Virus record (IMG/VR): IMGVR_UViG_3300025635_000053
Location: 1 to 40,069 of that record
Origin: a virus
Taxonomy: Duplodnaviria > Caudoviricetes
DNA: 40,069 nt
Direction: 5' to 3' (one strand)
Part shown: positions 19,797-24,063 of the stretch, piece after piece
Layout: each line of letters starts with the position of its first letter
Numbering within the stretch: position 1 is the stretch's first letter
Translations under genes and position numbers: made by a program
The notes under the pieces: model-generated
The model's input: only the letters and a program-made list of their open reading frames with translations
Databases searched by the model: none
What the model was told of the DNA's origin: nothing

Positions 19797-20141
19797 TTAG
19801 TTAACTTCTACTGCATGTACTTCGAACTGCACCATTGGTGCACGACGCTGACTCTCAGCAATATCCTGACGACGGTCAAAGCGTGTAACTAAACGACCTG
19901 ATAGAGTAACCAAGTCTGTCTGTTCTGTACCTGCACGGCTCAAGCCAAGGATTTCTCCTACTGTTGAGTCATCTAGTGCAACAACATTAATACCAACAAC
20001 ATATACCTGTCGGTCAGCACCACCATTACTAAAGGTGCTTACTTCACGCTGGTCAAACCAAGCCGTTACCATAGTTCCTTTTGAACCATTGTATGTCTTG
20101 ATGTTCTTCAACTTACCTGTTAGTTTAACTGTATTTTCCAT
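19797..20141 (-). CDS. SSB-like OB-fold protein (no acidic tail)
   Basis: MENTVKLTGKL...INVVA...LVTLSGRLVTR...QFEVHAVEV matches the SSB strand pattern (NxVxLxG...VxVxGRL). Confidence 0.65.
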   Translation of the reverse strand: MENTVKLTGKLKNIKTYNGSKGTMVTAWFDQREVSTFSNGGADRQVYVVGINVVALDDSTVGEILGLSRAGTEQTDLVTLSGRLVTRFDRRQDIAESQRRAPMVQFEVHAVEVN

Positions 20142-20758: not shown

Positions 20759-20815
20759 GATATAATACCAATCCTTACCATCTTACCGCCACTGTCCATA
20801 TTAGACAGCGGGCAT

Positions 20816-20848
20816 AAAAAAACCCTATCCTTTCGGATAGGGTTTTTC
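20816..20848 (-). terminator. Intrinsic terminator after SSB-like gene 1 (possibly bidirectional)
   Basis: AAAAACCCTATCC-GAAA-GGATAGGGTTTTTTT on the - strand. Confidence 0.92.
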
Positions 20849-20854
20849 TACTGT

Positions 20855-21250
20855 TTAGATAGATACAGACTCTACCATGAAGGCTGTATCCCATGTGCCA
20901 TTGCTGCTCTTAGTGGTTCTGAACCAGCCAGACACATCAACCTGTGGACGTGCAGTTGCTTTAGCAACTGTGCGGTCGCGGGTTTCTGTGCTCTCTGCTT
21001 CGCGCTCAACGAAGTGCAGGTCGCCGCCTGAATTATCAGGCTGCGCAGCGTCCTTGGCAAAGTACTGTAGTTCGAGTGCTCGCAACGCATCAACCGCGTT
21101 GAATGAACGGAACTTTAGCGATGCTTCGAACTTGCCGTTCTCATCGCGTAGGATTAAGATACCACTTGCGTAGGTATTCCCGCTCTTGGCGGTGCGAGTC
21201 TCAACGTGTGCCAATTCAGCACGGTCGAAGGAAATGTCATGTTGTGACAT
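20855..21250 (-). CDS. Divergent SSB-like / OB-fold protein, first gene of the early arm
   Basis: Likely start ATG 21250. VETRTAKSGNTYASGILIL...SLKFRSF...VDVSGWFRT...WDTAFMVESV resembles the SSB strand order; no acidic tail. Confidence 0.5.
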   Translation of the reverse strand: MSQHDISFDRAELAHVETRTAKSGNTYASGILILRDENGKFEASLKFRSFNAVDALRALELQYFAKDAAQPDNSGGDLHFVEREAESTETRDRTVAKATARPQVDVSGWFRTTKSSNGTWDTAFMVESVSI

Positions 21251-21296
21251 GATTGCCTGCTTTCTCTTTGTAGTTGTTGCTCGGATGAGCAGAGCA

Positions 21297-21395
21297 GCAT
21301 CAGGCTGGGGTTCTGGAGCAGTGTCATAAGCCACGCGGGGTCCCGCTTGCGGGTCGCGTGGTCGTTGACACAAGCCAGGTTCCCTGCCAGATTGC
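21297..21395 (+). promoter_or_regulatory. ~100 nt imperfect hairpin carrying TTGACA-N17-CAGATT on its 3' arm (candidate ssDNA promoter)
   Basis: GTGTCA/TGACAC, CCACGCG/CGCGTGG, CTGG/CCAG, GGGG/TCCC and GCATCAGGC/GCCAGATTGC pairings; -35 at 21365-21370, -10 at 21388-21393. Confidence 0.5.
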
Positions 21396-21830
21396 GCGGC
21401 GCATCTTCCGCGCTACAACACATAGAGACAGCGCTTAGGCAGTCATGACGCGACATGCCTTTGAGCGGGATGAATCAGGCGCATGGGGAGCGAGCCGCCA
21501 TGAGACGGGTGTGCCGTACGCAGGTGGTCACCCTATGCGATGGCAAGGTCGGGCTTCGCTTCCGTTCAGACAACAAGGTCATGCGGCGTGCCGAACTGCA
21601 GTGCTAGCAAGGATGCTAGCCCTGATACTTCTGGCACGGCATGCCTTCGTGCGAAGCAACAGGAACCCGTGGACGCACTGGCTTAGCCAGCGTCCACAGG
21701 TCATGTGGCTGGTGGTCAGAGCCACTAGCAATGCAGGGGATGCAGTCTATCTGTAGAGTATATCTATTTAAACAGTAGATAGACTATGCCCCCTGTCAGT
21801 CAGGCAGACTGACTACCGTAACAGTTACGC
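21394..21830 (+). other. Dense array of stem-loops (structured ssDNA element or ncRNA)
   Basis: GCGCGG/CCGCGC, AGGCA/TGCCT, TGCCGT/ATGGCA, GCTAGCA/TGCTAGC, GTGGACG/CGTCCAC, GTGGCT/AGCCAC, AGTCTATCT/AGATAGACT, GTCAGTC/GACTGAC, CGTAAC/GTTACG. Confidence 0.6.
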
Positions 21831-21836
21831 CAGCAT

Positions 21837-22121
21837 ACTGCTATCTGTACCACAATTAAACAGTCTACAGGGTCAGTATGACCCCAGACTGTTTAATACA
21901 GCACCAGTTATATTACAGTATCTCTATAAACAATTTTCTGTTACTATAGTTACAGGGGGGAATATACTGTCTGACCTGCGGTTTTAAAATAGTTCTGTAG
22001 AAATAGTTCGTTTTACCTATTTGAACGGATTAAGTATATATAGAGCAGTAAATATCTTCGCAAGTCTTTTAATAGCCTTGCTCAGATACTGTACAAACAA
22101 CTGTACAAACTGCTATCTGTA
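21837..22121. repeat. AT-rich repeat/palindrome region (candidate pac site, origin or late promoter)
   Basis: ACTGCTATCTGTA at 21837 and 22109; tandem CTGTACAAAC; 12-bp inverted repeat ATTAAACAGTCT/AGACTGTTTAAT. Confidence 0.5.
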
Positions 22122-22161: not shown

Positions 22162-24063
22162 GTGGCGACAAAGGGTGGCTTTCAAAAGGGTGGGGAACAC
22201 TTCGCCGCCAAAGGTGTCGCTGCGGCAAAAGAGGAAGTACTTGAGTCCGTAAGGGCGGGTATGTCACTCCAGTCGGCAATGGTCAAGGCAGGCAAGAAGC
22301 CAGACACCGCCCGAATCTGGATGATGCGCGACCCAGCATTTGCGCGTTCATTGGAAGAAGCCCGTGAGGACGCGGAGCAAAAGTCTTTCAAGAATCTTGG
22401 TGTGGAGAAGGAGTCGATTCCTTTCAAGGACTTCTCGAAGTTGTTCTTGGACCAGACTGTATTTCCACACCACCAAGATTGGATTGACCTCCTTGAGGGG
22501 CAGGAACCTTCGTGGCTCCACCCAGGGATGAAGTACGAGCCAGGACAGCCGAACCGCCTATTGGTGAACGTTCCTCCTGAGCATGCTAAATCCACCGTTA
22601 TCACGGTGAACTACTCAACTTACCGCATTGCCCTCAATCCAAACATCCGCATCATTGTGGTATCAAAGACCTTGGTTAAGGCGCGAGAGTTCGTATACGC
22701 TATCAAGCAACGACTGTCCCATCCACGTTGGCTTAAACTGCAGACCGCATATGGTCCAGAAGGCGGCTGGAAACAGGACGCAGATACTTGGCGCACCGAT
22801 ACGGTCTATCTTGGGGGCGATGCGCGTAACTCATCTGAAAAGGACCCTACGCTTCAGGCGCTAGGTATGGGTGGACAGATTTACGGCGCACGCGCCGATT
22901 TGATTATTCTAGATGACTGCATTACCACGGCTAACGCACATGAGTGGGAACAGCAAATTAACTGGTTACAGAAAGAAGTTATTACCCGTTTGGGTAAGAA
23001 CGGCAAATTGCTAGTGGTGGGGACCCGAATTGCAGCGAATGACCTTTACAAAGAACTTAGGAATCCTAAGCACTGGTCTGGGGGTCAGACTCCGTTTACT
23101 TATATGGGCATGCCTGCTGTTCTTGAATATGCGCCTGACCCAAAGGATTGGGTTACGCTCTGGAAAGAGTCGGATGTCCCTTGGGATGGCGATGACGATA
23201 CTCCGCAGGAGAACGGCTTCTTCCCCAAGTGGGATGGCAATGCGCTCTTCCGTAGACGAAGTGAAGTAACTCCCTCAACATGGGCGCTGGTTTACCAGCA
23301 AGAAGATATACAAGAAGATTCAATCTTTCCACCTGCTCTAGTCCAGTCGTGTATGAACGGCAGACGCAAGATAGGCACACTTAAGCCTGGCGCTGTAGGA
23401 CACCCAGAGCATGTGGAAGGCTATACAGTCATTGGATTCGACCCTGCTATGGGTAGAGGACATGCAGCCTTTGTGGTTGCTCACTATAGCAAGATTGAAA
23501 AGAAGATTTATATTCTTGATTGTGTAAATATGGCGGACCCAACGCCGCAGAAGATTCGTGCGGCAATTGAGGACTTGACTGTTAAGTACAGCCCTCAAGA
23601 GTTTAGAGTGGAAATCAACGCTCATCAGAAAGCATACTCGCTTGATGAGGACCTACGTCAGTGGCTATCTATGCACGGGGTTAAACTTGACTCACACTTT
23701 ACTGGTAAGAACAAATGGGATACATCATTTGGTGTTGCATCTATGTCAACACTTTTTGGCACAATGCGTAATGATAAGTTTGAAGACAACAATGTCATTG
23801 AGTTACCTTCTAGCGAAGGCTCTGAAGGAATCAAGGCACTGGTGCAACAACTCATTACATGGAAGCCAGATACAAAAGGCAAGACAGACTGTGTTATGGC
23901 TATGTGGTTTGCGATTATTCGCTGCCGCGAATTCATGCAGCAGTCAGCCTTTAGTGCAAGATATGCAAACAACCGTTGGGCTACTCGTACGCAGAAAGCC
24001 AACAGATATTCAATTAACCTCACTGATGCCATGAACGAACAATGGCAAGAGAACTACGGATAG
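22162..24063 (+). CDS. terL: Terminase large subunit with N-terminal HTH-like extension
   Basis: FPHHQDW Q-motif, VPPEHAKST Walker A variant, GARADLIILDD Walker B, VGTR, LVYQQ, IGFDPA nuclease motif, DCVMA. Confidence 0.92.
   Translation: MATKGGFQKGGEHFAAKGVAAAKEEVLESVRAGMSLQSAMVKAGKKPDTARIWMMRDPAFARSLEEAREDAEQKSFKNLGVEKESIPFKDFSKLFLDQTVFPHHQDWIDLLEGQEPSWLHPGMKYEPGQPNRLLVNVPPEHAKSTVITVNYSTYRIALNPNIRIIVVSKTLVKAREFVYAIKQRLSHPRWLKLQTAYGPEGGWKQDADTWRTDTVYLGGDARNSSEKDPTLQALGMGGQIYGARADLIILDDCITTANAHEWEQQINWLQKEVITRLGKNGKLLVVGTRIAANDLYKELRNPKHWSGGQTPFTYMGMPAVLEYAPDPKDWVTLWKESDVPWDGDDDTPQENGFFPKWDGNALFRRRSEVTPSTWALVYQQEDIQEDSIFPPALVQSCMNGRRKIGTLKPGAVGHPEHVEGYTVIGFDPAMGRGHAAFVVAHYSKIEKKIYILDCVNMADPTPQKIRAAIEDLTVKYSPQEFRVEINAHQKAYSLDEDLRQWLSMHGVKLDSHFTGKNKWDTSFGVASMSTLFGTMRNDKFEDNNVIELPSSEGSEGIKALVQQLITWKPDTKGKTDCVMAMWFAIIRCREFMQQSAFSARYANNRWATRTQKANRYSINLTDAMNEQWQENYG

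Follow-up and report, generated by a model that had tools for sequence, protein, structure and literature searches.

A long imperfect hairpin whose base lies at the start codon of a gene for a predicted single-strand-binding protein probably acts as a promoter for host RNA polymerase only when its DNA is single-stranded. The hairpin was found in a 40,069-nt virus sequence from a podovirus-like phage, referred to here over its whole length as the window. Comparison with relatives argues with good confidence for a folded-DNA promoter in some role; the full reading, in which an Frpo-like ssDNA promoter drives the SSB-like gene and is exposed at a genome end, is held with less assurance, and it is the account we favor. 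The original prediction of an ssDNA promoter at this site gains support from a conserved hairpin, sigma boxes on its 3′ arm, a broken −10 on its 5′ arm, a bias towards the plus strand and an SSB/PriB-type fold modeled for the adjacent protein.

The rightward genes of the window include the terminase large subunit gene (terL, 22162–24063, plus strand) and those for portal and capsid. The leftward arm starts at 21250 and encodes a PD-(D/E)XK exonuclease, a DnaB helicase, a primase, RusA, a sigma-like factor and WhiB. terL is the divergent neighbor of the SSB-like gene and lies outside the one-gene unit described below. PHROG and Pfam searches found no DNA polymerase among the scanned window proteins, no relaxase was found among the 35 and 23 window proteins scanned, and a 1692-aa protein considered as a possible N4-like virion RNA polymerase had no PHROG or Pfam match. 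Sequencing runs containing this phage are mostly freshwater metagenomes. WhiB and the nearest cultured relatives, which are 43–45% identical in terminase, point to an actinobacterial host.

The hairpin, or rod (21248–21447, plus strand), contains approximately 73 Watson-Crick pairs and folds at −54.0 kcal/mol, compared with −33.1 ± 3.1 kcal/mol for shuffled sequences, none of which reached as low a value in 200 trials (z approximately −6.8). It is the top inverted repeat in the window (score 111; runner-up 87), and its basal stem pairs the ribosome binding site and start codon of the leftward gene. A smaller fold had been proposed at 21297–21395; the fold is real, but its extent was underestimated, as the full rod reaches the start codon. 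When both strands were folded, the sub-stretch 21290–21400 gave nearly equal values (z −3.25 on the plus and −3.19 on the minus strand), so this short stretch alone cannot name the folding strand, and the minus strand of the entire rod folds at −51.6 kcal/mol. The plus strand is favored across relatives, as described below. No Rfam match was obtained for the rod, and in a fixed-grid scan of 200-nt segments it was not ranked top, with 21501–21800 folding better (approximately −50 kcal/mol).

Promoter elements occupy the 3′ arm of the rod. A −35 box, TTGACA (21365–21370), is separated by 17 nt from CAGATT (21388–21393), which together with TG at 21385–21386 forms an extended −10, TG-c-CAGATT (21385–21393). 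In the fold, TGTCA at 21322–21326 pairs with the −35 box, the first T of which faces T21327, while the −11 A (A21389) is mismatched against A21302. All coordinates given in the earlier description, including the A·A mismatch, were correct. A bulge claimed for the −7 T is present in the centroid fold, whereas the minimum-energy fold places the bulge at −8. Within the spacer, GTT at 21310–21312 faces GTT at 21379–21381 in a G·T/T·T/T·G internal loop that is kept in the window's cluster. The 5′ arm partner of the promoter (21297–21327) is the predicted template; as duplex DNA its minus strand reads ATGACA-N17-CCTGAT, without a −11 A, in agreement with the earlier claim that the ordinary duplex lacks a usable −10 in this direction. 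Leftward transcription would start at 21290–21293 (minus strand), giving a leader of approximately 41 nt (31–51 nt in relatives), and a Shine-Dalgarno-like AGAAAGCAGG lies at 21256–21265 (minus strand) within the basal stem. In duplex DNA the 3′ arm box constitutes an intact rightward promoter, and a sigma-70 scanner run on the window did not list it.

Relatives were collected in three scans that yielded 100 loci, 10 of which were dropped because no ATG was found or fewer than 200 nt were available upstream. The remaining 90 loci comprise 65 distinct upstream sequences, one of them identical to the window, with identities to the window of 45–83%. A long inverted repeat of 46–84 Watson-Crick pairs was present in all 65, showing that the hairpin is kept, and the start codon marks the end of the stem in most loci; nine of the 65 were individually refolded. 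A strand-neutral count of oppositions across the 65 loci gave 318 G·T versus 92 A·C, and 210 T·T versus 68 A·A, on the plus strand. G·T was ahead in 54 loci and A·C in 5, with 6 ties, and the excess recurred by cluster (26/28, 14/15 and 10/11) and in the basal stem (99 versus 23). The plus strand was also more stable than the minus strand in 63/65 loci. Both the G·T excess and the stability identify the folding strand as the template strand of the adjacent SSB-like gene. Because a G·T bias fits plus-strand RNA equally well, it is only the sigma boxes and the absence of an antisense promoter that argue for DNA. Across 22 folds, 7 loops have the form gCNNGc and presumably belong to a known class of stable DNA loops; they are strand-neutral and were not counted as evidence.

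The promoter boxes are conserved along with the fold. A simple sigma score was higher on the plus than on the minus strand in 61/65 loci. Among the 56 loci with the best site on the 3′ arm, TTG was found in 55, TG in 54, and the −11 A and −7 T in all 56, a figure that is partly circular as the score rewards those bases. In a MAFFT alignment blind to the promoter score, T21366, A21389 and T21393 were invariant in 32/32 loci. The 3′ arm consensus is TTGNC/TGn/[CT]ANNNT. The nine remaining loci were read by hand: their 3′ arm always carries TGn-[CT]AGG[CA]T, with a weak −35 in four, and the other five are short rods with none. Overall, a −35-like hexamer at a spacing of 16–18 nt was present in 60/65 loci, a few being weak (e.g., CTGTTG and TAGCAG). 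A short variant of 118–124 nt (longer in L116), with TGn-TAGGCT alone near the apex and no −35, lies upstream of the start codon in L035, L036, L038, L041, L042, L108 and L116.

In the gene-facing duplex counterpart, a −11 A together with a −7 T was found in 0/56 loci, so that the gene-facing −10 is broken in every scored locus, and the breakage is lineage-specific, arising by substitution (CCTCAT, CCGATG, CTGATG) or by insertions of 2–5 nt (TATTTG, TAAAAG, CAAAGC). In 22 cluster representatives, positions 3–6 of the −35 are paired in 21–22, with several pair types, and positions −14 to −12 in all 22, while the −11 A is paired in only 9; these counts, like the pair counts for the 65 loci, derive from per-locus arm alignments, which lean towards complementarity. 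The boxes stay on the 3′ arm and the −35 core is held by several pair types. RNAalifold, run on 20 loci aligned with MAFFT, missed the rod (13 pairs, −5.4 kcal/mol), as indels misalign the arms. A scan for leftward promoters gave 10.2 versus 10.0 expected by chance in 52 loci with the gene and 10.5 versus 10.5 in 68 loci without it; as there was no excess in the latter either, the scan has little power against an ordinary leftward promoter, although it did pick up 2–3 in each of four BF phage right ends. A strong leftward match (12.7) was seen in L023/L068.

The gene downstream of the rod, P0001 (20855–21250, minus strand), encodes 131 aa. An AlphaFold model built from a 32-row alignment (pLDDT 77; loop 67–98 disordered) matched M. 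tuberculosis SSB in Foldseek (E 2e-4), and structural comparison gave Z 11.2 for PriB (rmsd 2.5, 85 aligned) and Z 10–11 for SSBs. The model thus bears out the SSB-like gene proposed at 21250, with a predicted OB fold of the SSB/PriB type, and suggests that P0001 binds single-stranded DNA. No acidic C-terminal tail was found in any of the 32 aligned homologues, and P0001 ends FMVESVSI. A conserved GGDLxF motif (residues 74–81) lies inside the disordered loop; our guess is that it stands in for the absent tail as a protein-contact motif. P0001 belongs to no PHROG or Pfam family, and its relatives were found in none of the cultured phages, 50,697 phage records or 185,579 species genomes. A computed intrinsic terminator (20815–20850, minus strand) closes the one-gene unit, and a terminator lies at most 90 nt past the stop in 59/61 loci with enough sequence. 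A second small beta-rich protein (19797–20141, minus strand), shared by relatives whether or not they have the rod, showed weak OB-fold matches (best E 0.03; low-confidence model, pLDDT 52) and no profile match to P0001; it is possibly the regular SSB of the family.

A source of single-stranded DNA is suggested by the position of the rod relative to what appears to be the right end of the genome. A motif, GACCC-N8-TTAA-N21-GTA (21880–21920, plus strand), resembles the last 40 nt of the terminal repeats of cluster BF phages, and from this likeness we infer a right genome end near 21920, where the plus strand would have its 3′ terminus. The termini of Streptomyces BF phages are 253-bp direct repeats (PMC9753666). 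In FlowerPower the pattern stops precisely where each of the two terminal repeats does, and in three further BF records it runs to the final base; the motif was found in 74/75 freshwater loci and once in the window. The 40-nt pattern was written after these sequences had been seen, and the BF terminase is 43–45% identical. The putative plus-strand 3′ end lies 470–670 nt from the rod, and in every locus reaching that far the rod lies to the left of the putative terminal repeat, a few hundred bases away. terL is divergent and 826–1201 nt from the ATG in 69/90 loci, the other 21 being short contigs. No clustering of contig ends was seen at the putative terminus, and contigs of relatives from an RNA run showed neither genome ends nor transcript starts. 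For a fork running to the right end, the plus strand is the lagging template. Break-processing machines leave or displace the 3′ strand (PMC5314763). With a right end near 21920, the folding strand would therefore be the strand that remains as a 3′ tail after resection or incomplete replication. Three origins had been suggested for the single strand, namely entry, resection and strand-displacement replication, and it is end resection and end replication that gain support from the putative genome end.

The association between rod and gene was measured in a terminase-side sample. Of 200 records fetched, the end motif together with at least 1000 nt beyond it was present in 110, giving 94 distinct loci. 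A rod score of at least 90, a threshold chosen after seeing the data, was reached in 26/26 loci with the gene and in 2/68 without it; shuffled loci scored at most 80 (188 shuffles). In a quick tree built from the TerL sequences of 89 of these 94 loci, the rod/gene trait switches state 18 times, and strongly supported branches back at least 12 of the switches. The rod is missing from most same-terminase relatives, even where TerL fragments are identical. Between phages that have the gene and those that lack it, almost no DNA is shared over the entire end region, and a clean insertion cassette was rejected as the flanks are not shared. The rod and gene may be an exchanged block, in which case linkage alone could produce their co-occurrence. 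Other long hairpins occur at the same position without an SSB-like gene in L269 (614–393 nt from the putative end), L109, L182 and L264; in L269, GTCAA is paired with TTGACA ahead of another gene.

Taken together, these data suggest the following sequence of events. The 3′ arm holds a −35, TG and −10, while the 5′ arm pairs with them and, as read from the sequence, offers no usable gene-facing −10. At a linear genome end near 21920 bearing the plus-strand 3′ end, the DNA would be resected 5′-to-3′ or unwound by an AdnAB-type machine of the host or by the PD-(D/E)XK nuclease of the phage, or alternatively lagging-strand copying would remain incomplete at the right end; either would free 500–700 nt of the plus strand. 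The freed strand would fold, and actinobacterial sigmaA holoenzyme is predicted to bind the paired −35 and TG, capture the unpaired −11 A and initiate near 21291 on the 5′ arm. The resulting short transcript, with a free ribosome binding site, would end at the 20815–20850 terminator, whereas in any read-through RNA arriving from the right the ribosome binding site and AUG would be folded away. The protein would coat the tail, and refilling of the duplex would turn the promoter off. As a tentative extension, the element might be a resection sensor, in which attack or unwinding by host break repair creates the promoter and the tail-less SSB shields the 3′ tail as a counter-defence.

Among other explanations, the same folded-DNA promoter might mainly make an RNA from which complementary-strand synthesis is primed anew at the genome end, in the manner of sso, with the SSB-like gene as a helper. 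The predicted direction of transcription suits refilling of the minus strand, no DNA polymerase was found among the scanned proteins, and Frpo transcripts prime complementary synthesis (bioRxiv 10.64898/2026.01.09.698686). Against this role, leader length, ribosome binding site and terminator are all conserved, a primase and a helicase are encoded by the phage itself, and the rod is lacking in 66/68 relatives without the gene. We consider this role unlikely.

It is also quite unlikely that the box works principally as an ordinary rightward duplex promoter, for instance in transcription-linked concatemer processing or to make a non-coding RNA, the left arm being an inverted copy produced by template-switch correction. 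The box on the 3′ arm stays intact in the duplex, 21501–21800 to its right folds strongly, and in T7 transcription through the terminal repeat is required. Set against these points, template switching would erase the −11 mismatches and give no G·T bias, and relatives lacking the rod have the same terminase and end motif as those that carry it. A rightward open reading frame at 21445–21756 is not conserved in relatives; ATG or GTG is found in 37/56 loci, with frames of 2 to 93 aa. A rightward duplex promoter, giving a non-coding or packaging-linked transcript, may nonetheless be real alongside the ssDNA promoter that we favor.

A structure acting as RNA, either in the mRNA of the gene, where it would hide the ribosome binding site and AUG, or as an antisense plus-strand RNA, appears improbable. 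The stem does stop at the start codon in most loci, and in the window the minus strand folds nearly as well as the plus strand. The wobbles, including those in the basal stem, favor the plus strand and not the mRNA; an antisense promoter inside the gene did not exceed chance (10.3 versus 10.1; a score of at least 11.5 in 1/63), Rfam gave no match, and an RNA element leaves the −35 and −10 at 16–18 nt spacing unexplained. Highly improbable is a packaging hairpin for terminal-repeat duplication, like the M-hairpin of T7, or a cruciform extruded from supercoiled duplex: the rod does lie to the left of the putative repeat, a few hundred bases from it, wherever a locus reaches that far, but most same-terminase relatives have no rod, even with identical TerL fragments, extrusion would cost approximately 195 kcal/mol (duplex −300.7 versus −54.0 and −51.6 for the two hairpins), and a cruciform would favor neither strand.

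Among known systems, the closest are Frpo1 and Frpo2 of plasmid F, ssi1–3 of ColIb-P9 and the class 2/3 ssDNA promoters of pESBL, with Frpo2 driving an ssb gene (PMC9849209, PMC11541004, PMC12672017). Like Frpo and ssi, the rod is a long stem-loop of the template strand that rebuilds a −35 and −10 just upstream of a gene; they are inactive towards the gene as duplex, and in the window the gene-facing −10 is unusable. Unlike them, the rod has an actinobacterial-type extended −10 (TGn-[CT]ANNNT), belongs to a one-gene unit with a terminator and sits in a tailed dsDNA phage for which no single-stranded transfer step is known; its single strand must therefore come from end processing or replication. 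Nor does the rod lie in a conjugative leading region, its genome being that of a phage with terminase, portal and capsid genes. It shows no sequence likeness to Frpo or ssi, and blastn against 72,556 plasmids returned one 37-nt match (E 0.6).

Host RNA polymerase also recognizes a folded single strand in the sso of rolling-circle elements and ICEBs1 and in the f1 minus-strand origin, as proposed for the rod. Those origins make primers and have no dedicated open reading frame, whereas the rod unit keeps a leader, ribosome binding site, gene and terminator. The early promoters of coliphage N4 are tiny hairpins with a 3-nt loop and no sigma boxes, read by the virion RNA polymerase and linked to SSB; the rod shares with them a hairpin promoter in a dsDNA podovirus and an SSB connection, but at 60–80 bp (46–84 pairs) it is far longer and carries host sigma boxes. 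The open-access literature yielded ssDNA promoters in plasmids and conjugative elements and the own-polymerase hairpins of N4, none with host polymerase in a tailed dsDNA phage, and nothing relevant on the phage group of the window. The Streptomyces cluster BF podoviruses (Beephvirinae, PMC9753666) resemble the window phage in gene order, terminase (43–45%), end motif and leftward early arm. Unlike it, four BF right ends have no such rod (best scores 72–81) and instead 2–3 ordinary leftward TTGACA promoters each. In these ends (L101, L103–L105), a gene-free region of 1.4–1.8 kb holds multiple copies of a leftward TTGACA-N17/18 promoter that has TG and departs from the canonical −12 (GAGNGT).

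Host-polymerase ssDNA promoters have been described for conjugative and rolling-circle elements, where the single strand is obvious. The rod would add a case with a concrete source of ssDNA, the right polarity and a predicted product acting on single strands. If the reading is true of a lytic-type dsDNA phage, its genome end is single-stranded long enough for transcription, which would bear on the fate of linear phage DNA just after entry and on the replication of terminal-repeat genomes without a phage polymerase, and would provide an actinobacterial genetic sensor of DNA-end resection.

Several further features were observed around the rod. Compared with shuffles, the non-coding end region (21450–21920) is more stably folded on both strands whether or not the phage carries the rod, and relatives without the SSB-like gene have many small hairpins there. 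A 24-nt inverted repeat (88%) at 20842–20865 and 21761–21784 flanks the gene and hairpin, with more TAAACAGT copies at 21855–21897. An invertible switch was considered for the rod and rejected, as its arms are approximately 80% complementary with a fixed asymmetry and no recombinase was found among the scanned proteins. Finally, a motif 5′ of terL, GTTCG-N9-TTTGAACRGRTTAA (22008–22035, plus strand), is strongly conserved, with approximately 370 stretches in the viral collection, and is probably either a late promoter used by the phage sigma factor or a signal for packaging.
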